Positions 43,305 through 57,410 of a stretch of DNA of 64,000 nucleotides are shown here, in pieces (position 1 is the stretch's first letter; each line of letters starts with the position of its first letter). A program made the translations under genes and the position numbers. Location of the stretch: contig OY759599.1 in the NCBI GenBank assembly GCA_963662465.1, positions 3,552,001 to 3,616,000 of the forward strand. Direction: 5' to 3'. The notes beneath the pieces were generated by a model. It did not search any database. It saw nothing but the letters and a program-made list of their open reading frames with translations, and had not been told where the DNA came from. The DNA comes from Desulfatiglandales bacterium. Its GTDB lineage: Bacteria; Desulfobacterota; DSM-4660; Desulfatiglandales; Desulfatiglandaceae.

Positions 43305-43477
43305 ATGAGCAAAGGAAAACCGAGCGTGGGTATGAAAGAAAAAAAGCTACTGATCCGCAACAGTACGGCGGAGTTTCTCATTTTCACCGGTCAGGCGGGC
43401 GGCCAAAGCATTGAGGCCCGGTACGAAGACGAAACCATCTGGCTGACCCAGAAGCTGATGTCAACTCTTTTTGAGAA
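43305..43477 (+). pseudogene. 5' fragment of a RhuM-family gene, truncated against VR3
   Basis: LIRNSTAEFLIFT...YEDETIWLTQKLM...LF matches the RhuM N-terminus; similarity ends where VR3 begins. Confidence 0.75.
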
Positions 43478-43684
43478 GAAAAGTAGGCGTAGGGACTACT
43501 CGAACAGTAATTGGACGAGCGACACTCCGGAAAATACGTCGTATCAATGCTGGGATTCACCGCCCGCATCATAACACTTCTCTATCCCCGTATCCGGTAA
43601 TTTGTAATCCCCGGCCACCACGCCGCCCCACAGACCCGTCAACAGCACCAGGCAACACCCCATCTCCACCACAACCTTTTTCAT
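43478..43684 (-). pseudogene. Decayed DGR target 3 (paralog of target 1) with internal deletion and partial VR3 (43478-43524)
   Basis: MKKVVVEMGCCLVLLTGLWGGVVAGDYKLPDTGIEKCYDAG is joined to NPSIDTTYFPECRSSNYCSSSPYAYF; shares the RBS region with 53599-54171. Confidence 0.85.
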
Positions 43685-43727
43685 TGCGTACCTCCTGTTT
43701 CTCATTCTGCCTTCCATAGGTGCTACT

Positions 43728-43803
43728 GTAGGTGCGGCTTTAGCCGCACAGCCAAACCCCCAAACGACCCCGATCCCCACTGTGCGGCTAAAGCCGCACC
43801 TAC
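43728..43803. repeat. GTAG-type REP doublet (REPIN-like)
   Basis: GTAGGTGCGGCTTTAGCCGCAC ... GTGCGGCTAAAGCCGCACCTAC. Confidence 0.8.
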
Positions 43804-43823: not shown

Positions 43824-44759
43824 CTATTGCGCCTCAGCCAACCGTTTCTCATCCGCCCATCGGCGCATCTCATCCAGGCTCTCCGCATCAAGAAACCGTT
43901 CCCCCAATTCCTCTATGGCGTCGGCATTCAAACCCTCGAACATGGGTTTGGCCATATCAGCGCCAACTCGAAAACGTTTAGCAATCAGCCGGCATAAAAG
44001 CGATATGCTCCCATCTTCTCTCCCAATTCTCTCGACACTCGTCACGTAAGGCATCTTTTTTCCCTCCTCATACTTTGACAATTCTTTCCAAAACAACCGT
44101 TCATGAGCTGCTGGAAGAGCCATCAGCCAATCAATGAACCGAAATAATTTGACGATATCCGCGCGGCTGTAACCGGCTGTATAGAGCTCTTTCACCAAAG
44201 CAAATTTGCGCTTGAAAAGTTCATCAGGGTCCTTCCCGCTTTCCAAAACCGACAAATGGGCGCGAACCACCACAACAAATGGATTCCCTTCTGCATCCGA
44301 CAAAAGCTCGGGCTTTGCCTGGTAATCCAGAAGCTTGACAACCGGGTAACGAAACCGCATTTCGCAGCCCCATAGGCTATAGGTGAACGCCTCGGGACGC
44401 CATTTCTTCGAATCATCCGCCAGAACCGCAAGGCTTACGACCCGCCGGTGGTACCGATCAAAAATCCGGTAATGGTAAACAAACATCCTTTCTTCAAAAT
44501 CCGTGTCCACCTGAGCCTGCACCTCGATATGCACCAGTATCCAGGCCTCCAGACCATCCAGAAGCCATATTTTCACCAGTTTATCCACAGTGCGCCTGCC
44601 CACCTCCGCATCGCGGGTAATCTGCCGAAGTTCCTTCTCCAGAAACGCATAGCCCCTTTCCCAATCGATCTGTTGGTGGGCCTCTGGGAAAAACAGCGAC
44701 ATGAACGGCTCGAAATAAACTTCCAGGATTTCTTTCCAGGGCGAATCAAAATCAGTCAT
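43824..44759 (-). CDS. Rpn/YhgA-like PD-(D/E)XK protein, copy 1
   Basis: DSPWKE, VDKLVK, LVHIEVQ, FEERMFVYHYRIFDRY, MPYVTSVERIG. Confidence 0.8.
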   Translation of the reverse strand: MTDFDSPWKEILEVYFEPFMSLFFPEAHQQIDWERGYAFLEKELRQITRDAEVGRRTVDKLVKIWLLDGLEAWILVHIEVQAQVDTDFEERMFVYHYRIFDRYHRRVVSLAVLADDSKKWRPEAFTYSLWGCEMRFRYPVVKLLDYQAKPELLSDAEGNPFVVVVRAHLSVLESGKDPDELFKRKFALVKELYTAGYSRADIVKLFRFIDWLMALPAAHERLFWKELSKYEEGKKMPYVTSVERIGREDGSISLLCRLIAKRFRVGADMAKPMFEGLNADAIEELGERFLDAESLDEMRRWADEKRLAEAQ

Positions 44760-45232: not shown

Positions 45233-48200
45233 CTACTGACTCATCTTCACAACCGACCCTTCCCTGGCTTCCATCTTGCTCTTAACCACGATATCGCTCG
45301 ATTTAAAGGTGGCCCGCGCCCCGCTTTCAATCACCACATTGGGACCTACGGTAAGCGATGTCGTGCCCGTACAGGTGCAGTCGGTGCCAGTCTTGAAGGT
45401 CTCGTCATGGACCGTCGGGTTGGCGCCGGAGCAATCGGGGCAACCGGCGGTGGTGAGCGTCTTGAAGGAACGGTTTTCCCCGTAGGCAGTGCCTGCGCTG
45501 TTGGTGGCGTAGGCACGGACGTAGTAAGTGGTCTCCTCGCTCAGTCCTGTGATGGCACAGGTAAACGCACCCGTACCCGATCCCGATGGGACCGGATGGT
45601 CACTGACAGTGGGATCTGTTGACGTACTCCAGCAGACGCCTCTGGCCGTCACCTCCGGAGCCCCTTCTTCCGTTGAAACGGTGCCGCCCCCGGTGGCGCT
45701 GGTGGAAGCGATGTCCGTGGGGGCCTTGGTGGTCACAGTGGGAAGGCTCTCTCCAGCTTCTTTCAACAGTACGGTCGAGGTATTATTCTCCTTGCTGTAT
45801 TCGGGGGTTTCATCATTTGCATTGACCACCAGATAGATGCTGGTAGCAGCGGTCACATTCTCCACAAACAACTCCCCTTCCATAGATACGCCCACCGCCA
45901 GGGCTGAAATATCCACGGTTTTGAGGATCTCCCCATCGACGGTGTTTTTGCGAAACACCAGGTGGGTGGCGCCCGACGGCAGGACCCCGGTGTTTCGCAC
46001 CCCGGCCTTGACAGAAAACTCTGTATCGGACACCCGGGTTTTGGAAACGGAAACCAGGCCCAAATCCGGAAGGGTCATCACCCGGCTCGCCTTGTTGTTG
46101 GTCCGGTCCCCGTCTTCAAAGGTGTTATCGGGGTCCACGATCACGTACAGGGTCAAAGGGGATGCCGTGGCCGCGGGAACCGTCCAGGTCAATTGAACCT
46201 GTTCGCTTGCGCCCGGCTCCAGGGTCTGGGCCGTTTGCGTGCGACCGATCTCGGTACCGCCGGTCGCCGGATCTCCATTGTAGAAGGCCGCAGGAATACT
46301 GTTTTCAGGGATATCGCCGGCATTCACCACATTGACCGTAAGGAGTACCGAATTCCCGGGGGCAGGATTCCCCGGTGCCGCCAGGAAAGTGCCTGCACCC
46401 ACGCTCAGATCGCCGGTCATGGCATATTGGGCCATATACAGGTCCGTCTGGATGAGGACAGGCTGTTCGTAGGAAACGGTTGCGCCGTAAGCCGTCCGTC
46501 GGCTCATCTGTTCCACCTGCACCACGGTTCGGTCATAGACCACCATAAGGGTCTTTTCCGCGGAAAAGGCTGCGGTCATTTGCTGTTCCGTCTCCGGGTC
46601 ATTCGTTAACTGCCGAGGGGCTCCCCACATGTCAAAGAGCGGGTCGTAGAACACCGCAAACAGGTCCGAACTGAATTCCAACGGCTCGGCCCATACCAGG
46701 GCCATGCGGCCGTCGGGCGTGTGGGCCATGGAAAAATCCGCCAGATTGCTGGAATATTCGCCTTCCAGAATGGTGGTCACCGCGTTTGATTGAAAATTCT
46801 TCTCGCTTACCAGGTCGCCGCCCCGCAGCCAGGCCATAATGAAATCCCCGCTGGGATCGATGGCCAGTTTCGGGTTTTCATCGGGCACGCTGTCATTGGT
46901 CAACCGTTCGAGAGCGCCCCAGGCGCCGGAGGAATAGGTCATGGAAAACAATTCCCGATCATCCACGGTTTCCGGATCATTATCCGCATCCAGGCTCAGC
47001 ACCGCATACCCGGTTGTACCGTCGTAAGCCAGGTCGTATTTGATCATGCCGTAGGGAATTTCCCCTGCCTGCCGCGGGTCGGTCCAGGAAGTGCCATTCC
47101 AGCGGGACCACCACAAGGTGTTGGGGGCTTCGGCATCACCCCGAATATCGTTTGCCGTATTAGCGATCCATACCAAAAGCACATCATCGGATGTGGGACC
47201 TGACAGTCTCGGGCTTCGGTCCAGGTAGTTGTTTTGGGTCAATTTTGAAATGTCCGTCCAGCCGGCGCCGGCATCATAGCGGGCCACGGAGATCTCCAGG
47301 TATTTCACCATATCTTCAAACTGCGCGTCATCGGGCATGACCTGCCCCTCATTTTCCCAGGCCAGGAGGCTGTTGCCGTCTGAATAGGCTTCCAGATCGG
47401 AGTTGAAATCCGCCGTGCCGTCATCTGAAACCGCCGCATACTCGCTCCAGTTGGCGCCGTTCCAGGCTGAGGATACCAGGACGGTGCGGTTGAGGGCAGT
47501 GCGGGTCGGATCGTCATAGAGCCATGTGAGCCGGACATTTCCGGTGGCGGCCGAGAGACACGATTCCGAATAGGGAAAGACCTCTCGCTGTACCGAGGAA
47601 AGCCTGGCAGCTCCTGCCTGGCGCGTGATGATTCTGCCGGCTGTGAAATCGCCGTATTCGGTGCTTTCCAGGTAGTTTCGCGAGGTCCATCGGGGTGTAA
47701 CGGGGTTGTTTTGAACAGAAAACATCATACTGTCGGCATCGCCGCCGTACTCCCAGTCCCAGCGGAGCAGCTCGTTTTCCCAGCTCCACAAAAAAAGGTA
47801 AGCGCTGTACCCGCCGTTCAGGTATATGGTCAGATCGGCAAGGGTGGGCTCTTGAGGAAACTGAAGACCAAAGTCGGCGCCGCCCCCAATCCAGCCCTCC
47901 ACCGCAATGACCGAATCGGCCCCAACTCCAAGGGAACCCCTGGCGTATGGTGAAACGCCAAATATGCCATTGATTTTGAAGGGACTCAAATCCACAATCC
48001 CCAGAGACGCATCAACACTTGCATTCACTGAAGCCTTGCCGTACATGGGGATCAACACGGGACCTACCGCCACAACAAAAGGCCAGGATTCCTTGGCCTC
48101 TCCCGAGCCCTTAATAGTCAGATATCCTTCCCAGTCCCAGGCGCATGAAGAACTGAAGTATTCCGCCTCAGCATCGAGGGCCACCTTGAACTCGACTTTC

Positions 48201-49747
48201 TTGCCCATAATTTTGAACTCCGCCAGCTTGCCGGTCTCAAGAGATGCCTCGCAGGTTCCGTGGCTGTCCACCTTGGCGCTGATGCGAGGCAGCCATTCCA
48301 GTTTGAATGCCTTATCACCGAACAGAGGAATCTCTGCGGGAATCACGCCCACGTCAACACCTGCCTTAATTCCATCGCTGTTAAAACCCATTTCAGTTTG
48401 GTAGAAAAACCCATCGCCCAAATCCAGTCCTTTTAACATCACGGGAAAGGGCTTGCCCGCCACCACCAGAGGCGCTTGCTTTTCAGCGGAAACGGCCCCA
48501 TCCGAGGAAACGGCCTTCACCTTCAAGCCGTTGCAGTTCCCGAATTCAGAGCCCATATTGAAGGTTTTGGATGCGGTCGTTCCGCCGGTGGCCACTTCAT
48601 GGGTGGTTGTGGGGGTAATGAAAAGTACCTTCTGCGGTGTGTGTCCGCCCCAGTCCACATTGGCGGTGTAGGTGGCATTGTAGTCCACCCCGTCAAGGTA
48701 AACCACATCCCCGTCATAGCGGGAAGTGATGTCCGTCACCACGATGCCGCCCGAAGAAGCGGTTTGCAATCGAAAATCCTGACGGACGGTTGCGCCGGAA
48801 GGGAGATACACGGACTGCACCGTATCCGCATAACCGGATTTCTTGACAGTAACGGTGTGATCCCCCGACGAAAGGCCTTGAACCGTATACCGGCCACTGC
48901 CGTCGGTGGTGGTTGAAAACCCGGTGCCGCTGACGGTGGCGATGGAAAGGGCGCTGTTGTCGGATTTGTCGTACACATACCCTTCCAGGGTTGCCGTACC
49001 TCCGCCGGTGCTGGTAATTTCATAAGTGACTACATTGCTTTTCCCGCCCGTTCCGCCGTCAATGGCCCACCATTCATACTGCCCTGCCGGGCGATCCCAG
49101 GGCACGGTGTAGGAGATTTCAAACCGGCCGTAAGCATTCACCCCCACCTCCTGGGTGGGGAATTCGGAGCCATCCGGCTTTTGGAAATGCAAAACAGCAA
49201 CCGTATAAGGGGTGAACCCCATACCCCACTGGGTCAGAACACCGCTGGGAGATGCGGACAACGGGGATTGGCCGATCAAATAATCAAATGATCCAGATGG
49301 TCCGGCGCGCACACAACGAACATAGTAGTGGTTGGCCTTATTGTTGAAGTCCACGTAGCCGTAGTAGAAAAAGACGGACCACGCGTAGTACGAATAGTTG
49401 GCGTAGGGACTACTCGACCAGTAAACGGACGAGCGACACTCCGGAAAATACGTCGTATCGATGGCGGGATTATAACGGTCCCAGGCAACCAGCGTCTCCA
49501 GCTCCCGCACATTGGGCAGTCGCCAGTCCGAATGTCCGCCCGGGGAAAGGTTCTCGCAATAGTCCAGGGCTTCCTCCCAGGTGCGGGTCATCCCATCGTC
49601 GCTCTGCTGCCACATCAGGCCGGTCACGGAATCGGAAACCGTGCCGTTGCCGTTGTCGTTGAACGCGGCAAACACGGTTCCGCCGCTGTACAGCAGAATG
49701 CTTGCCAGCAAAACACACGCGCACGCCAAAGTTCTTTTTCTTCTCAT
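45233..49747 (-). CDS. DGR target 2: 1504-aa secreted multidomain protein (signal peptide, N-terminal DUF1566 with VR2, Ig/carboxypeptidase-regulatory-like, CARDB-like x2, FN3-like, Cys-containing C-terminal domain)
   Basis: DNGNGTVSDSVTGLMWQQ...DWRLPNVREL...YWSSS...AW.V.F...YVRCVR at about aa 30-148; TTYYVRAYATNSAGTAYG near the C-terminus. Confidence 0.88.
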   Translation of the reverse strand: MRRKRTLACACVLLASILLYSGGTVFAAFNDNGNGTVSDSVTGLMWQQSDDGMTRTWEEALDYCENLSPGGHSDWRLPNVRELETLVAWDRYNPAIDTTYFPECRSSVYWSSSPYANYSYYAWSVFFYYGYVDFNNKANHYYVRCVRAGPSGSFDYLIGQSPLSASPSGVLTQWGMGFTPYTVAVLHFQKPDGSEFPTQEVGVNAYGRFEISYTVPWDRPAGQYEWWAIDGGTGGKSNVVTYEITSTGGGTATLEGYVYDKSDNSALSIATVSGTGFSTTTDGSGRYTVQGLSSGDHTVTVKKSGYADTVQSVYLPSGATVRQDFRLQTASSGGIVVTDITSRYDGDVVYLDGVDYNATYTANVDWGGHTPQKVLFITPTTTHEVATGGTTASKTFNMGSEFGNCNGLKVKAVSSDGAVSAEKQAPLVVAGKPFPVMLKGLDLGDGFFYQTEMGFNSDGIKAGVDVGVIPAEIPLFGDKAFKLEWLPRISAKVDSHGTCEASLETGKLAEFKIMGKKVEFKVALDAEAEYFSSSCAWDWEGYLTIKGSGEAKESWPFVVAVGPVLIPMYGKASVNASVDASLGIVDLSPFKINGIFGVSPYARGSLGVGADSVIAVEGWIGGGADFGLQFPQEPTLADLTIYLNGGYSAYLFLWSWENELLRWDWEYGGDADSMMFSVQNNPVTPRWTSRNYLESTEYGDFTAGRIITRQAGAARLSSVQREVFPYSESCLSAATGNVRLTWLYDDPTRTALNRTVLVSSAWNGANWSEYAAVSDDGTADFNSDLEAYSDGNSLLAWENEGQVMPDDAQFEDMVKYLEISVARYDAGAGWTDISKLTQNNYLDRSPRLSGPTSDDVLLVWIANTANDIRGDAEAPNTLWWSRWNGTSWTDPRQAGEIPYGMIKYDLAYDGTTGYAVLSLDADNDPETVDDRELFSMTYSSGAWGALERLTNDSVPDENPKLAIDPSGDFIMAWLRGGDLVSEKNFQSNAVTTILEGEYSSNLADFSMAHTPDGRMALVWAEPLEFSSDLFAVFYDPLFDMWGAPRQLTNDPETEQQMTAAFSAEKTLMVVYDRTVVQVEQMSRRTAYGATVSYEQPVLIQTDLYMAQYAMTGDLSVGAGTFLAAPGNPAPGNSVLLTVNVVNAGDIPENSIPAAFYNGDPATGGTEIGRTQTAQTLEPGASEQVQLTWTVPAATASPLTLYVIVDPDNTFEDGDRTNNKASRVMTLPDLGLVSVSKTRVSDTEFSVKAGVRNTGVLPSGATHLVFRKNTVDGEILKTVDISALAVGVSMEGELFVENVTAATSIYLVVNANDETPEYSKENNTSTVLLKEAGESLPTVTTKAPTDIASTSATGGGTVSTEEGAPEVTARGVCWSTSTDPTVSDHPVPSGSGTGAFTCAITGLSEETTYYVRAYATNSAGTAYGENRSFKTLTTAGCPDCSGANPTVHDETFKTGTDCTCTGTTSLTVGPNVVIESGARATFKSSDIVVKSKMEAREGSVVKMSQ
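49299..49438 (-). repeat. DGR variable repeat VR2 (codons 104-150 of target 2)
   Basis: Matches the surviving TR except 14 substitutions in AAY codons plus 1 at the TR break, all at TR adenines. Confidence 0.95.
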
Positions 49748-49750
49748 CTT

Positions 49751-51072
49751 TCAAACCTCCCGGCAATTTTTCATCTGTTCCAATCCACAAATCATTTTCC
49801 CCCGAAAAAGCTTCACCAGCCTGCGATGCACCATCCCATCCAGCGTCTTTTCCGCTCGAATCAGGGCAACATGATACCCGGCATTCAAAGCCTTCATCAG
49901 AAAACGGCCCAGCCACCGCCGATGGAAGCCGCACCCATACCGAAATCCTCGAAGACCCAAAACCGGTTTGAGACCCAAAACATTCCGGGCCAGCCACGCC
50001 TGATAACCATAAAACTCATAAAAGAGGCCGACCGGGAAAAAAATCAGCGCTTTTGTTTCAAAACCTCCCCCGGTCCACAGCGGATAAAAATGCCCCCGGA
50101 CTCCGGGCGCGACCGCGCTTCCCTTTTCAGGCGCCCACCAGCGATAGGCAGCCCGGAAGGTCGCATTTTTTCCCGGCGGCGCATACCTCGGAATAAGCCG
50201 CCCGTCGTCCAGGATAAAAGCGGCCCTCAACACCGCATGTTTTTCAAAAAGCTTCAGTACAAGACCATGCGTATCCGCCCACGAAAAATGCCCGAGATAA
50301 GAGGCTGTCACGGCGCGCAAGGCGTCCATGGTCAAAACAGGGTACTGCCAGGCTCTGATTTCCCGCCCCCTGCCGCTTACAGGAACCGGCTCCGCCAAGC
50401 ATTTTTCAAAATTCGCCAGTTTCTCCTTAAAATGGTTCACCACCCGCCGCCGGGCCAGCACATAACGTCGGCGAACAATATAACCCAAAAAATCAATCCC
50501 CGATGAGACCGGACGGAGGCGGTCCTGCTGCACGTTGGGCCGAAGCAACAGTTCTTCCCTCAAAAACCCTTCAATGGTCTCCCGCCATCTCATCAGCTTT
50601 TGAGGGGACGGATCCAGCAGCAAAAAGTCATCGCAATACCGGATATAATACTTGCATTTCAGCCGATGTTTCACAAACTGATCCAGCTCATTCAAATACA
50701 CATTGGCAAAAAACTGCGAACTGAGGTTTCCGATGGGAAGCCCCTTGCCGGAAGGCACCTTAAAAAGAGTCTTGTGCGGCGGTATGCGCTCCAACAACCG
50801 TTCATTACCCTTGAACCGGTAATCCACGGTGCAATCGTGAAATATCATCACCTGCGTCAGCCACAGCGCATCCTCCCGTTTGATTTTCTTTTTGATGAGC
50901 CGGCAGAGAATCTCCTTGTCCACGTTCATGAAAAACCCGGCCACATCGGCCTTCAAATAGGAGATCCGTTGGGTTCCGTTTTTCGTGGCGCGGTTCAAAA
51001 ACTCCCGGAGCCGAGAAACGCGGCGTGGACGCCCTTCCCTTTCCGGCATGCATAGGAATCATAAATAAACAT
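49751..51072 (-). pseudogene. DGR reverse transcriptase: N-terminally truncated, frameshifted near 51020, with a C-terminal MutS-I-like domain
   Basis: FIYDSYACRKGKGVHA, YLKADVAGFF, GLPIGNLSSQFFANVYLNELD (DGR-type SQ), YIRYCDDF (YCDD at 50627-50638), GIDFLGY. Confidence 0.92.
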
Positions 51073-51080
51073 CTTATTGT

Positions 51081-52878
51081 CAGCAATTCCCGCTTAGATT
51101 CTAAAGGCGCTAGGACAGTACCTTTTGGCATTTCCTTTTCGTAAAGCTTTACGTTGAATGAATAGCCTGAAAAGGCTTTTTTCTCCAATTTTTAAAATAA
51201 AACAGGAATTTTTTTGGCAATTCTCAGAAAAAGCTGGACTTTCAGATCAACTTGGCCGATGATTACTGCCTATGGGAATCAGAAGCCAAAAAGGAAGAAA
51301 AGAGAGAGGCAAGATTGGAGTTCGCAAGCATCTTAATGCAGATGCAATTTTCAAGCGTCTGCATAAAGATTTTTCTGAAGTCTCTGACTGCCGTGAGGAT
51401 CCCGATATTACTATTGCGGATGCCTTGATGTCCGGGTTTGCAATGTTTTCGCTCAAGGAGCCATCGTTGCTTGCCTTTGATGAAAGAAGAAAAACCGATA
51501 GTAATCTTGGGAACATATACCATATTGGAAAGATCCCATGTGACAGTACGATGCGCACCATTCTTGATGAAGTGCTCGCAGAAGAACTTCGGAAACCGTA
51601 TAGGAATATCTTCTGGGAACTGCAAAGGGGAAAGGTGCTTGAACGTATGGTATTTTTCGAAGGTTGTTATCTTCTATCTTTGGATGGAACGGGTTTCTTC
51701 TCATCGAAGAAACTTTCCTCTGATAGTTGTTTGGTAAAAGTATCGAAAAAAACCGGCGAAAAAACCTATTATCAGCAGATGTTGGGGGCAGCAATTGTCC
51801 ATCCGGATTTCAAAGAGGTCATTCCGCTTGCTCCGGAATTCATAGTCAAGCAGGATGGCCAAAGCAAGAACGACTGTGAGCGTAATGCCGCGAAACGTTT
51901 CTTGCAAAAGCTAAAAGAGGAGCATCCCCATCTGCCTATCATTATAACAGAGGACGCGTTAAGTTCGGATGCACCCCACATTGAAGAAATACAAAAGCAA
52001 AATTTTCATTATATTCTGGGAGTTAAAAAAGGAGATCACCATTTCTTGTTTAATCACGTCGAACAAGCGCGGATAAATGGTGACGTCACTGAATTCGAAT
52101 TGGTCGATAAAGAGGATCCGGAAAAAATACATCGTTTCCGATTTATTAACCAGGTACCTCTCAATGCCTCTAACAAGAATATGCTGGTTAACTTTCTGGA
52201 ATATTGGGAAATTACACCGAAAAAAACAAAACATTTTAGTTGGGTGACAGATTTTTTAATAGGAAAGGACAATGCATACCAGCTAATGCGAGGCGGCCGT
52301 GCGAGATGGAAGATCGAAAATGAAACCTTCAATACTCTTAAGAACCAAGGATATCATTTTGAACACAACTACGGGCTCGGCAAGAAGAATCTGAGTGTTG
52401 TTTTTGCGATGCTCATGATGCTGGCATTCTTGGTGGATCAAACTCAACAGCTTTGTTGCCCTCTATTTATAGCCGCATGGCATAAACTCGGCTCAAAAAG
52501 GGAATTGTGGGAACGGATGAGAGCTTTGTTTAGAGATTTTGAATTCAAATCGATGAGGATGCTCTATGAAGCCCTCTATTATGGCGTAAAGTTTCAAGCG
52601 CCAGTTATTCTATATAACAGTGGTTAAATTTGTCATGCCCAAGTTCGCATACAAAAATGCTCTCATTAATAAAAAACTGGAGATTCCGGAAATGGATATC
52701 TCTGCCCTAACTCGTGCTTTTATGCTCTTACTCTTGTCAAAGAAGCTCAACCTGCAAGAAATCGAGGGAGGTAATAGTGGATTTAATACAATTTTTCTGA
52801 AAAGGATCTGATCTCAGGGTTTGTTTTTGAAATATGTTTTTCAAACTCTGTGAGTAAATTCTTGACCGGGAATTGCTG
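51081..52878 (+). mobile_element. Insertion sequence (1798 bp; ISNCY/IS4-superfamily-like) in the DGR TR, with 9-bp TSD TCTTATTGT
   Basis: 12-bp perfect TIR CAGCAATTCCCG / CGGGAATTGCTG; TSD at 51072-51080 and 52879-52887. Confidence 0.93.
51272..52627 (+). CDS. DDE transposase (451 aa)
   Basis: LSLDGTG, KNDCERNAAKR, ITEDAL, GRARWKIENETFNTLKNQGYHFEHNYG. Confidence 0.88.
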   Translation: MGIRSQKGRKERGKIGVRKHLNADAIFKRLHKDFSEVSDCREDPDITIADALMSGFAMFSLKEPSLLAFDERRKTDSNLGNIYHIGKIPCDSTMRTILDEVLAEELRKPYRNIFWELQRGKVLERMVFFEGCYLLSLDGTGFFSSKKLSSDSCLVKVSKKTGEKTYYQQMLGAAIVHPDFKEVIPLAPEFIVKQDGQSKNDCERNAAKRFLQKLKEEHPHLPIIITEDALSSDAPHIEEIQKQNFHYILGVKKGDHHFLFNHVEQARINGDVTEFELVDKEDPEKIHRFRFINQVPLNASNKNMLVNFLEYWEITPKKTKHFSWVTDFLIGKDNAYQLMRGGRARWKIENETFNTLKNQGYHFEHNYGLGKKNLSVVFAMLMMLAFLVDQTQQLCCPLFIAAWHKLGSKRELWERMRALFRDFEFKSMRMLYEALYYGVKFQAPVILYNSG

Positions 52879-52983
52879 TCTTATTGTTGTTGTTCACGTT
52901 GCCGTTGTTGAAATTGACGTTCCACGCGTTGTTCGAATTGTTGGCGTTGGGACTACTCGACCAGTAAACGGACGAGCGACATT
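52879..52983 (-). ncRNA. DGR template repeat (TR), 3' end missing
   Basis: TGT CGC TCG TCC GTT TAC TGG TCG AGT AGT CCC AAC GCC AAC AAT TCG AAC AAC GCG TGG AAC GTC AAT TTC AAC AAC GGC AAC GTG AAC AAC AAC AAT AAG A (14 AAY codons); lies between avd and RT. Confidence 0.95.
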
Positions 52984-53151: not shown

Positions 53152-53544
53152 TTACCGCCGATTGTTCGAACGCTTTACAACCATGCTGCCGGGCTTATTT
53201 CCGCCCGCACTTTTTAACCACCCCTCATTTTGCCGAGACACATTGACCACCTTCTCGGCAAGCTGCAAAAATGTTTTCGGTTTATTGAATGCCTTCACCT
53301 CCCTGGCAATTACCAGGTGGATCTTAATCCTTTCCAGTAATACGCGTAATCTCAAAAGCGCCGGTGTTTTATCTACCAGCGAATTGGCTTCCATAATCAA
53401 GCCCAGCGCATCGTGACACATGCTTCTCAATTCGGTCCCGATGGTGTACTTGTGGTAGCGGGAAAAAAATTTGACCGTATTTTCCACCAGCACCGTCTCT
53501 TCCATCATGGCTTTGAATATGGGGAGATGATCGTAATTCGCCAT
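53152..53544 (-). CDS. avd: DGR accessory variability determinant (four-helix bundle)
   Basis: YDHLPIFK...FSRYHKYTIGTELR...VSRQNEGWLK; 130 aa, basic, directly upstream of the TR. Confidence 0.88.
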   Translation of the reverse strand: MANYDHLPIFKAMMEETVLVENTVKFFSRYHKYTIGTELRSMCHDALGLIMEANSLVDKTPALLRLRVLLERIKIHLVIAREVKAFNKPKTFLQLAEKVVNVSRQNEGWLKSAGGNKPGSMVVKRSNNRR

Positions 53545-53598
53545 ATAACCCTTTAGCCCGAAACGCTTAAATAACCAAAGAAAAAAATAATCCAATAT

Positions 53599-54171
53599 TC
53601 AAGGTCCGGCGCGCACACAACGAACATAGTAGTGGCTGGCCTTACCGTAGCCGCCCACGCGGCCGTAGCTGAAATGGACGAGCCACGCGTAGTCCGAACC
53701 GTCGGCGAGGGGACTACTCGACCAGTAAACGGACGAGCGACATTCCGGAAAATACGTCGTATCAATGCTGGGATACACCCGCCCAAAATCCACAATAGAC
53801 ATTAGTTCCCGCCGATCCGGCAGGCGCCAGTCCGAGTACCCCCCCGATGGAAAGGTCAGGGCCGCACAATAATCAATGGCCTCCTGCCAGGTGCGGGTGG
53901 TTCCGTCATCGGCTTGCTGCCACATCAACCCGGTGTTCAGGTCGGTCACGGTCCCGTTCCCGTTGTCCCGGTAGGCGGGTTGGGGCCCGTCGTATTGCGC
54001 ATCCTGGCCGTAAAACGGCGCCCCGGACTGGGGACAGGGAATTTCTTTACCCGCATCGTAACATTTGTGAATGCCCGTATCGGGTAATTGGTAGTCCTCG
54101 GCCACCGCACCGCTCCACAGGCCCGCCAGCAACCCCAGCCAACACCCCATCGCCACCACAACCTTTTTCAT
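53599..54171 (-). CDS. DGR target 1: secreted DUF1566 (C-type-lectin-fold) protein with C-terminal VR1
   Basis: Signal peptide; LPDTG..CYD, FYGQDAQY, DNGNGTVTDLNTGLMWQQ, DWRLP..EL, YVRCVRAGP*. Confidence 0.92.
   Translation of the reverse strand: MKKVVVAMGCWLGLLAGLWSGAVAEDYQLPDTGIHKCYDAGKEIPCPQSGAPFYGQDAQYDGPQPAYRDNGNGTVTDLNTGLMWQQADDGTTRTWQEAIDYCAALTFPSGGYSDWRLPDRRELMSIVDFGRVYPSIDTTYFPECRSSVYWSSSPLADGSDYAWLVHFSYGRVGGYGKASHYYVRCVRAGP
53603..53744 (-). repeat. DGR variable repeat VR1
   Basis: Matches the surviving TR except 21 substitutions in AAY codons plus 1 at the TR break, all at TR adenines. Confidence 0.95.
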
Positions 54172-55096: not shown

Positions 55097-56056
55097 CTAT
55101 TGCGCCTTGGTCAACCGTTTCTCGTCCGCCCATCGGCGCATTTCGTCCAAACTCTCCGCATCAAGGAACCGCTTCCCCAATTCCTCAATGGCCTCGACAT
55201 TCAAGCCCTCAAACATGGGTTTGGCCGTATCAACGTCAACTCGAAAACGCTTGGCGATCATCTGGCATAAAAGCGACAGGCTTCCCTGCAGCATGCCCTG
55301 CTGCATCCCATCTTCTCTCCCAATTCTCTCGACACTCGTCACGTAAGGCATCTTTTTTCCCTCCTCATACTTTGACAATTCTTTCCAAAACAACCGTTCA
55401 TGAGCTGCTGGAAGAGCCATCAGCCAATCAATGAACCGAAATAATTTGACGATATCCGCGCGGCTGTAACCGGCTGTATAGAGCTCTTTCACCAAAGCAA
55501 ATTTGCGCTTGAAAAGTTCATCAGGGTCCTTCCTGCTTTCCAAAACCGACAAATGGGCGCGAACCACCACAACAAATGGATTCCCTTCGGCATCCGACAA
55601 AAGCTCGGGCTTTGCCTGATAGTCCAGAAGCTTGACAACCGGATAACGAAACCGCATCTCGCAACCCCACAGGCTATAGGAAAACTCCTCGGGACGCCAT
55701 TTCTTCGAATCATCCGCCAGAACCGCAAGGCTTACCACCCGCCGGTGATACCGATCAAAAATTCGGTAATGGTAAACAAACATCCTTTCTTCAAAATCCG
55801 GGTCCACTTGCGCCTGCACCTCGATATGCACCAGTATCCAGGTCTCCCGGCCATCCAATAGCCATACTTTCACCAATTTGTCCACGGTGCGCCTGCCCAC
55901 CTCCGCATCCCGGGTGATCTGCCGAAGTTCCTTCTCCAGAAACGCATAGCCCCTTTCCCAATCAATCTGTTGGTGGGCCTCTGGAAAAAACAGGGACATG
56001 AACGGCTCGAAGTACACCTCCAGGATTTCTTTCCAGGGAGAATCAAAATCAGTCAT
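55097..56056 (-). CDS. Rpn/YhgA-like PD-(D/E)XK protein, copy 2
   Basis: Near-identical to copy 1; ATG at 56056 after AAGAGG; tail has MQQGMLQG. Confidence 0.8.
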   Translation of the reverse strand: MTDFDSPWKEILEVYFEPFMSLFFPEAHQQIDWERGYAFLEKELRQITRDAEVGRRTVDKLVKVWLLDGRETWILVHIEVQAQVDPDFEERMFVYHYRIFDRYHRRVVSLAVLADDSKKWRPEEFSYSLWGCEMRFRYPVVKLLDYQAKPELLSDAEGNPFVVVVRAHLSVLESRKDPDELFKRKFALVKELYTAGYSRADIVKLFRFIDWLMALPAAHERLFWKELSKYEEGKKMPYVTSVERIGREDGMQQGMLQGSLSLLCQMIAKRFRVDVDTAKPMFEGLNVEAIEELGKRFLDAESLDEMRRWADEKRLTKAQ

Positions 56057-56145
56057 GTTGAAACACCTCTTAAAAACGGTTAATGTCGGCAACCTTCAGC
56101 TACACAAAAAAGCCCCCTGAAACATCAATCCCAATGGGTCCCTCA

Positions 56146-56252: not shown

Positions 56253-57200
56253 CTATTGCGCCTCAGCCAACCGTTTCTCATCCGCCCATCGACGCATTTC
56301 ATCCAGACTCTCCGCATCGAGAAACCTCTCCCCCAATTCCTCTATGGCTTCGGCATTCAAACCCTCGAACATGGGTTTGGCCATATCAGCGCCAACTCGA
56401 AAACGTTTAGCAATCTGCCGGCATAAAAGCGACAGGCTTCCCTGCTGCATCCCATCTTCTCTCCCAATTCTCTCGACACTCGTCACGTAAGGCATCTTTT
56501 TTCCCTCCTCATACTTTGACAATTCTTTCCAAAACAACCGTTCATGAGCTGCTGGAAGAGCCATCAGCCAATCAATGAACCGAAATAATTTGACGATATC
56601 CGCGCGGCTGTAACCGGCTGTATAGAGCTCTTTCACCAAAGCAAATTTGCGCTTGAAAAGTTCATCAGGGTCCTTCCCGCTTTCCAAAACCGACAAATGG
56701 GCGCGAACCACAACAACAAATGGATTCCGACCGGCGTCCGACAAAAGCTCGGGCTTTGCCTGATAATCCAGAAGCTTGACAACCGGGTAACGAAACCGCA
56801 TTTCGCAGCCCCATAGGCTATAGGTGAACTCCTCGGGACGCCATTTCTTCGAATCATCCGCCAGAACCGCAAGGCTTACGACCCGCCGGTGGTACCGATC
56901 AAAAATCCGGTAATGGTAAACAAACATCCTTTCTTCAAAATCCGTGTCCACCTGAGCCTGCACCTCGATATGCACCAGTATCCAGGCCTCCAGACCATCC
57001 AGAAGCCATATTTTCACCAGTTTATCCACAGTGCGCCTGCCCACCTCCGCATCGCGGGTAATCTGCCGAAGTTCCTTCTCCAGAAACGCATAGCCCCTTT
57101 CCCAATCGATCTGTTGGTGGGCCTCTGGGAAAAACAGCGACATGAACGGCTCGAAATAAACTTCCAGGATTTCTTTCCAGGGCGAATCAAAATCAGTCAT
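56253..57200 (-). CDS. Rpn/YhgA-like PD-(D/E)XK protein, copy 3
   Basis: Near-identical to copy 1; ATG at 57200; tail has one MQQG. Confidence 0.8.
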   Translation of the reverse strand: MTDFDSPWKEILEVYFEPFMSLFFPEAHQQIDWERGYAFLEKELRQITRDAEVGRRTVDKLVKIWLLDGLEAWILVHIEVQAQVDTDFEERMFVYHYRIFDRYHRRVVSLAVLADDSKKWRPEEFTYSLWGCEMRFRYPVVKLLDYQAKPELLSDAGRNPFVVVVRAHLSVLESGKDPDELFKRKFALVKELYTAGYSRADIVKLFRFIDWLMALPAAHERLFWKELSKYEEGKKMPYVTSVERIGREDGMQQGSLSLLCRQIAKRFRVGADMAKPMFEGLNAEAIEELGERFLDAESLDEMRRWADEKRLAEAQ

Positions 57201-57410
57201 GTTGAAATACCTCTTAAAAGCAGTCCGATTTATTGGGTTACGCTTTTGCATTGCATCTTTTTCAATACTTTACTTTCTATCAGATCATTTTCAAAAGTCA
57301 ATAGGGGCTTTTCATGGGGATATGCTCATTCATAGGGGGCTTTTCGGGGGGTTCTAAATAAAAGACATCATGGCAACATTCCTTTGCTCAGTTGAGGCTG
57401 GCCCCCATCC

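Follow-up and report, generated by a model that had tools for sequence, protein, structure and literature searches.

A MutS domain I on the reverse transcriptase of a broken DGR, and a one-sided link between this module and host mutS1 and mutL

DGR reverse transcriptases (RTs) fused to MutS domain I were described in 2018, so the novelty that the original prediction implied for such a fusion does not stand, and the locus reported here adds one broken copy to a known type. According to the accessible parts of Wu et al. (2018, NAR 46:11, PMC5758913), three related DGR RTs carry a C-terminal MutS_I domain; they come from Ca. Magnetobacterium bavaricum (FP929063), an uncultured Desulfobacterium (FR695874) and a bioreactor metagenome (AMWB01060384). 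In the same source, a stand-alone MSL gene defines Architecture D, which comprises 16 DGRs (Table S1). The available text of a preprint (bioRxiv 10.1101/2024.11.15.621889) places Msl in the DGRs of Bacteroides fragilis, B. thetaiotaomicron and B. uniformis. Our literature search, in which subscription journals and bioRxiv supplements lay mostly outside, returned no functional test of Msl or of a fused tail and no match to the connection between this module and host repair. That connection, a one-sided link of the module to host mutS1 and mutL, is what this analysis adds.

We analysed a stretch of 64,000 nucleotides (the window) from a Desulfatiglandales bacterium (GCA_963662465.1, contig OY759599.1, positions 3,552,001 to 3,616,000). 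Its open reading frames and Pfam matches revealed a DGR with two targets on the minus strand, whose parts are as follows.

53599..54171, minus strand: target gene 1, 190 aa, C-terminal Lcl_C domain (DUF1566/CLec; Pfam PF07603, 127.7 bits)
53641..53742, minus strand: variable repeat 1 (VR1), the portion still matching the template repeat
53152..53595, minus strand: avd (accessory variability determinant), Pfam bAvd-like with E 8.7e-7 and 29.8 bits, below the cut-off of 40
52879..52981, minus strand: template repeat (TR), AAC-rich, 3′ end missing
51081..52878, plus strand: insertion sequence (IS) of 1798 bp, with a DDE transposase at 51272-52627 (Pfam DDE_Tnp_1, E 8.4e-5)
49751..51080, minus strand: DGR RT with YCDD active site, thumb, linker and tail, about 90 N-terminal residues missing
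49808..50056 (Pfam span), minus strand: fused MutS domain I-like module, F-Y-E at 50015-50023
45233..49747, minus strand: target gene 2, 1504 aa, N-terminal Lcl_C followed by carboxypeptidase-regulatory, CARDB and Fn3-like domains (Pfam)
49337..49438, minus strand: variable repeat 2 (VR2), close to the 5′ end of target gene 2

The DGR context with Avd that had been predicted is borne out, as the cassette combines a DGR-class RT (RVT_1 with YCDD), adenine-specific TR/VR pairs, avd and CLec-type targets whose domain, Lcl_C (PF07603), we take to be the former DUF1566. Over 107 nt, VR1 differs from TR at 24 positions, 23 of them TR adenines and the remaining one at the 5′ edge, and VR2 differs at 18, of which 17 are TR adenines; about 40 further bases are common to both VRs and absent from TR. 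Adenine-specific pairs were likewise found in 32 of 45 tailed loci, and in 20 of the 27 that exceed 9 kb. The product of target gene 1 begins with a hydrophobic stretch that, by eye, reads as a signal peptide, and target gene 2 starts 4 bases past the RT stop. The position of avd between target and TR recurs in an intact element of the same layout (L010) from a named isolate, Desulfamplus magnetovallimortis, and the placement of a VR near the N-terminus of a long second target recurs in L010 and in L001, a second DGR of the window's own genome. Elsewhere in the window (43380-43760) lies a broken copy of an Lcl_C target gene, 86-88% identical to the VR regions over 84 nt before running into unrelated sequence; it adjoins Rpn-like DUF4351 genes, which are present as three repeats (43824-44759, 55097-56092 and 56253-57251).

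The window copy would not be active as assembled. It has neither an intact TR 3′ end nor a full-length RT: at the IS site, the last ~40 bases of TR and the first ~90 codons of the RT are gone. Since the VR/TR differences fall almost exclusively at TR adenines, the element was active once. The IS carries terminal inverted repeats, has duplicated 9 bp of its target, is one of 11 near-identical copies in the genome (blastn, window copy included), and its contig reaches ~12 times the depth of the RT in the short-read contigs. Because the 9-bp duplication is perfect, it suggests that the deletion preceded the insertion of the IS. No second copy of the RT DNA, nor the missing 5′ part of the RT, was found elsewhere in the genome by blastn; by tblastn, only the genome's other two non-intron RTs matched, and none of the short-read contigs listed carried an IS-free allele. 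An apparent frameshift near 51019 was rejected, as both short-read contigs have one more base at this position, which makes it an assembly error. One other IS copy, at G000:C1 2835436-2837233 in the same genome, lacks matching flanks, whereas the other ten have 9-bp duplications; it is possibly the product of an IS-mediated rearrangement.

The RT tail had been predicted by eye to be a MutS domain I joined covalently to the RT. The peptide on which that reading rested lies in a minus-strand frame of 432 aa (49751-51049), with K333 at 50053 as claimed, in which RVT_1 (aa 17-191, E 1.5e-10) and MutS_I (aa 332-414) follow each other without an intervening stop. MutS_I scored 28.4 bits on the frame against a curated Pfam cut-off of 20.6, and 32.3 bits (E 1.2e-7) when only the last 109 aa were searched. 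The F-x-E motif, aligned to both host MutS and Taq MutS, is present as G341-L-F343-Y-E345. MutS/MSH folds were also matched by an AlphaFold2 model of the C-terminal 137 aa, built from a 40-row alignment in which one row was the host MutS domain and five were stand-alone Msl; its mean pLDDT was 78.9, rising to about 91-97 over residues 41-100. Foldseek returned solely MutS/MSH chains among the 40 matches listed (the best with E 1.3e-5 and an rmsd of 2.3 across 90 columns), and VIA-align gave Z scores of 11.0 (Taq MutS), 10.9, 9.5 and 9.2 to MutS/MSH chains compared with 4.3 for the best unrelated one among 48,161 chains. A full-length model of an intact homolog (P0007), built from 101 RT rows only, arranged the strands and helices of the tail in the same order (pLDDT 94, pTM 0.88), its top match being the Bordetella bRT 8ub7 (E 4e-25, TM 0.90 by target). 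Single-sequence phmmer against PDB yielded no significant match (best MSH6, E 0.14).

We rejected the possibilities that the tail forms an ORF of its own and that it results from an assembly join. The tail is in frame in all 16 other proteins returned, and a single contig spans 49430-51108 in each of two short-read runs, both from one sample, without substitutions over the RT and tail. Nor is the tail a separate ORF of 112-283 aa of the kind that defines stand-alone MSL, and the host's own mutS lies at another place in the genome. The fold also takes in an N-terminal helix near 50130-50158, ahead of the Pfam span, and contains a roughly 26-aa insertion after its first helix that is seen in the window's subclade. 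The frame ends 18 residues beyond the Pfam span, leaving no connector, lever, clamp or ATPase domain. The last ~130 residues of the RT are a MutS domain I without the MutS clamp or ATPase.

In MutS, residues named as DNA contacts are Phe39, Glu41, Asp38, Arg76 and Arg110, and mismatch detection combines domain I with the partner's clamp, half the interface (accessible parts of PMC10432192). We examined the equivalent columns, in Taq numbering by alignment, across 77 strong tails (at least 80 bits with an HMM built in this analysis). Gly37 is kept in 77, Glu41 in 76, Arg110 in 76 and Arg76 in 41, and the Phe39 column holds F in 41 and Y in 27. The window's subclade has F/Y and E in 19/19 and the Arg110 equivalent in 18/19. 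The columns of Asp38 and of Met70, the methionine of the second contact loop in Taq MutS, are not kept: the window protein has L and G there, and the commonest states across the 77 tails are R/C/K and G/gap/R, respectively. The tails have a median net charge of +9, compared with 0 in two MutS domains. Stand-alone Msl proteins are near neutral and have lost the Glu, with F-M-Q in 6/9 and F-x-R-A-Y in the three others. With most contact columns kept and the clamp absent, the tail likely binds DNA and may be specific for mismatches.

A survey of other DGR RTs for the same fusion, as the original prediction had proposed, found 32 Pfam-positive for MutS_I among 80 GTDB loci, a set enriched in tails as it was collected with a fused query (family alignment) and a tail pattern. 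The Pfam test covered long tails plus the second RT of the window's genome and put 34/49 above the cut-off. With our own HMM, a tail of at least 20 bits was detected in 140 of 252 RTs (the loci together with representatives at 50% identity); classed by HMM columns, 84 of these tails have F/Y-x-E and 56 lack it. Hosts of tailed RTs include Thermodesulfobacteriota, Nitrospirota, Pseudomonadota, Myxococcota, Elusimicrobiota, Planctomycetota and Chloroflexota; within the window's phylum, 15/401 genomes gave a match, ten of them with a whole or partial tail. Two loci of Magnetobacterium casense (L014 and L036) fall inside the tailed clade. The fusion marks a large RT clade.

In a clade of ten loci the tail is shortened to below Pfam detection, and eight of the ten have a stand-alone msl with F-M-Q. 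The eight loci with both tail and msl (L038, L046, L047, L049, L054, L062, L082 and L085) share a Trp-rich tail motif, G-x-W/Y/C-W/C-E, and their hosts come from five phyla, which suggests horizontal spread and a division of labour. The second DGR of the window's genome, mentioned above (L001 4404-12790; G000:C1 402400-410800), has an intact tailed RT with the motif Y-V-E, two targets (CHAP plus Lcl_C, and Lcl_C plus a lipase-like domain) and an in-frame TAG inside avd; a third stretch resembling its TR (83%) is found at C1:591994-592133. A third DGR seems to have left a remnant on the minus strand (L005 6075-6323 and 6403-8031; G000:C1 near 5920200): a truncated msl of 82 aa (Pfam MutS_I, 21.5 bits) immediately follows an Lcl_C gene, the 3′ end of which is 69-72% like both TRs. 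The same genome codes for a DGR-like RT of 334 aa without a tail (L002 6290-7294; G000:C1 near 1133300), for which no TR/VR pair was found within 13 kb. One Desulfobacteraceae MAG (L034, L037) carries at least four near-identical copies of a tailed RT, three of them N-terminally truncated to frames of 410-427 aa, a loss similar in extent to that of the RT in the window. In a Patescibacteria-group genome without mutS1 or mutL (L111 1252-2838, minus strand; G490:C2), a DGR RT is in frame with a C-terminal Avd (RVT_1 64 bits; bAvd 59.3 bits, cut-off 40).

For each genome we recorded whether a single DGR-type RT locus had the module, defined as a fused tail or an adjacent msl, and whether the genome had repair genes, defined as mutS1 or mutL. 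Among 125 genomes, 55 had module and repair genes, none had the module without repair genes, 17 had repair genes without the module, 51 had neither, and two were ambiguous (G370, with a divergent long MutS, and G042, with a sub-cut-off MutS). The module is therefore present in 55/72 hosts with mutS1 or mutL and in 0/51 with neither. The four module-bearing genomes without a mutS1 match all have mutL above the cut-off; by comparison, mutL was found in 0/53 genomes lacking both module and mutS1. The 17 module-less loci in repair-positive hosts include three Xanthomonadales loci nested among tailed RTs. Three loci were scored as module-positive despite imperfect tails: L030, whose tail is in another frame, and two with an msl, L046 (stop in the tail) and L062 (weak tail). 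The tally leaves out loci whose RT is broken, cut or masked (L033, L039, L040, L043, L056 and L059), a remnant tail (L081), cut loci (L112 and L152), split ones (L102/L105), additional loci of genomes already counted, and RT matches without a locus (G349, G388, G444, G456, G602 and G616). For the many loci with flanks of only 1.5 kb, absence of msl comes from genome-wide searches, plus wider flanks for 11.

The pattern repeats within a small clade of Omnitrophota and the Patescibacteria group, where msl occurs in three mutS-positive hosts (G287, G243 and G640) and was not found in four repair-less sisters. One of the three, G243, had at first been scored as repair-positive without the module; its msl, missed by Pfam, was located after the pattern had predicted one. 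The cassette of the repair-less G313 has target, avd, RT and downstream gene in the same order as G287, minus msl. Among the matches examined in a module-profile scan of 251 Omnitrophota and 351 Patescibacteria-group genomes, which leaves aside weak matches in G365, G549 and G607 (mostly long frames), no intact msl-like or fused module occurred in a mutS-less genome. Three candidate counter-examples were rejected: G262 (a mutS that is gapped and broken, at the end of a contig, in a genome without a mutL match), G321 (a contig-edge fragment in a mutS- and mutL-positive genome) and G409 (four internal stops, on a contig other than that of its RT). A MutS-type match is patchy in both groups (about 107/251 Omnitrophota and 65/351 Patescibacteria-group genomes), which makes them a natural test bed for repair-dependent traits.

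Fisher tests of the association gave values of 4e-8 to 1e-17, which overstate it because related genomes are not independent. Independent contrasts yielded five pairs on well-supported branches, of which 3.6 on average agree and 0 oppose (sign test, p = 0.125). By mutS1 alone, before mutL was checked, the same test had given no signal (p = 1, then 0.6), and an intermediate run gave p = 0.5, the pairs being too few at every stage. The module changed state 7 times on the tree. All repair-less hosts have genomes of at most 2.0 Mb, mostly MAGs of unstated completeness, so streamlining could have removed module and repair separately; msl is nevertheless retained in the repair-positive small genomes (1.6-2.0 Mb) of G287, G243 and G640.

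A clamp-less, ATPase-less, basic domain that is tethered to the RT and occurs, among the hosts sampled, only in repair-positive ones is best read as a local shield. We thus propose, with a probability of roughly 45%, that the tail is a putative tethered shield that keeps host MutS off the mismatch-rich cDNA/VR heteroduplex. RT and Avd would copy the TR RNA with mis-incorporation at adenines, as is established for DGRs, and the cDNA would pair with VR, in the literature model, to give a dense run of mismatches. The RT-borne tail might then bind this heteroduplex through Phe/Tyr-x-Glu and the conserved arginines, its strong positive charge substituting for the lost clamp. Having neither ATPase nor connector, the bound tail would load no MutL and might thereby block repair until replication fixes the variant; a stand-alone Msl would serve as a shield in trans.

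That host repair opposes DGRs is indicated by two published observations. According to the accessible text of the Bacteroides preprint (bioRxiv 10.1101/2024.11.15.621889), a mutS knockout in B. ovatus, whose DGR is Msl-less, increases VR mutagenesis by 5- to 10-fold, in an all-or-nothing fashion, and two engineered E. coli DGR systems include a dominant-negative MutL, as far as the available descriptions go. The original prediction had named shielding as one possible function, and both the B. ovatus result and the one-sided link to host mutS1/mutL lend it indirect support. Other observations count against the shield. The module is absent from 17/72 repair-positive hosts, the independent pairs are few, and genome streamlining could account for both losses. 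The Asp38 and Met70 columns are lost, Msl lacks the Glu, and 56/140 tails are without F/Y-x-E. In the accessible part of the same preprint (bioRxiv 10.1101/2024.11.15.621889), the three Msl-bearing Bacteroides DGRs are 100- to 10,000-fold less active than two Msl-less ones, a difference that its authors attribute to transcription. Homing of BPP-1 is reported to be independent of mutS in the available parts of Wu et al. (2018, PMC5758913); the accessible text of another study describes an 18-nt insertion reporter, not a MutS substrate, on which mutS is without effect (PMC12875486).

The tail could instead be a homing factor that acts independently of repair, binding distorted target DNA (heteroduplex, hairpin or fork) and docking the RT-Avd-cDNA complex there, which we consider unlikely. 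This role would liken the tail to the domain with which group II intron RTs bind DNA, which occupies the same place after the thumb; the pTM of 0.88 of the full-length model suggests a fixed pose of the tail on the RT, and the strongly basic charge and the loss of the Met70 column would suit it, as would the scoring, in the accessible parts of PMC5758913, of two of Wu's three fused DGRs as lacking a stem-loop rich in GC after VR. However, it leaves unexplained both the absence of the module from 51 repair-less hosts and the differences between sister cassettes according to host repair status, and module-less RTs of the same clade also occur in DGR cassettes.

It is distinctly unlikely that the module works together with host repair, either damping or gating retrohoming or passing the heteroduplex to MutS/MutL for removal of the parental strand. 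The co-occurrence with mutS1/mutL fits this equally well, and there is room for a damping role in that the Msl-bearing Bacteroides DGRs, as presented in the accessible text of the preprint, are the tightly regulated, far less active ones. The same text reports that loss of host MutS raises DGR mutagenesis, which speaks against such a partnership. The tail also lacks the connector and ATPase, and no clamp-binding motif is conserved in it. These two domains are the parts of MutS that load MutL. A search of tail ends with a beta-clamp-binding motif pattern matched 2/140 tails and 1/67 tail-less RTs, and the motif was rejected as a general tail trait.

A role inside the RNP, with the tail attached to TR RNA or to the mismatched hybrid of RNA and cDNA and aiding the RT past mis-incorporations, seems quite improbable. 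The tail is basic and covalently bound to the RT, and RNA/cDNA mismatches arise beside it; yet, going by the available description, the RT and Avd of BPP-1 produce mutagenized cDNA in vitro without such a domain, and this role has no tie to host repair genes and sits poorly with the near-neutral stand-alone Msl. We regard as very improbable that the tail is a mere passenger, acquired from mutS a single time in a lineage with repair genes and shed by small genomes among many other genes so that ancestry and genome size produce the link to repair: the few module-state changes on the tree, the many decayed tails (56/140) and the small genomes of all repair-less hosts would fit, but the DNA-contact columns at the surface hardly vary across 77 tails from many phyla and msl persists in small genomes with repair.

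Extending the shield to all forms of the module, we tentatively suggest that DGRs may own an anti-mismatch-repair device, a MutS domain I that is RT-fused, Avd-fused or free as Msl, is kept only with host MutS/MutL and masks the heteroduplex. If true, this would assign a function to Msl and account for the fixation of dense mutations by chromosomal DGRs in repair-proficient hosts; DGR-based mutagenesis tools would gain a local alternative to global inhibition of MutL. The link between module and repair bears on how DGR cDNA integrates and escapes mismatch repair, and it makes the function of Msl addressable by a two-by-two cross of tail or msl deletion with mutS deletion.

Set beside the published description of Wu's three RTs, as far as it is accessible, the window DGR has the same MutS_I domain after the thumb and the same DUF1566/CLec2 targets, and two of the three share its TG-avd-TR-RT-TG layout with two targets. 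The accessible account of the three gives a weak identity and no motif, fold or function analysis, whereas here the Pfam cut-off was passed, the fold was matched, and the fusion was found in many phyla and tracked host repair genes; the ~26-aa insertion of the window's subclade may be a further difference from the three. Stand-alone Msl resembles the window tail in being MutS domain I alone and in always having avd present, and in several published cassettes, in the parts available, msl overlaps the RT stop codon as a split version of the fusion. It differs in being a separate near-neutral gene product with the Glu mostly replaced, the fused tail being basic with F/Y-x-E kept. Domain I of MutS1/MSH6 (PF01624; PDB 1fw6, 1e3m and 2o8b) is like the tail in fold (Z 11.0, rmsd 2.0-2.3 over ~90 residues), in G-x-F-Y-E and in the columns of Taq Arg76 and Arg110; the tail is unlike MutS1/MSH6 in having no connector, lever, clamp or ATPase, in its lost Asp38 and Met70 columns and in a charge of about +9 against 0. 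Finally, the DGR of Bordetella phage BPP-1 (mtd-avd-TR-brt; PDB 8ub7) shares with the window DGR its RT fold, Avd, a CLec-type target and adenine-specific TR-to-VR mutagenesis, but its bRT of 328 aa has no tail, and mutS is reported to be dispensable for it in the accessible parts of PMC5758913.
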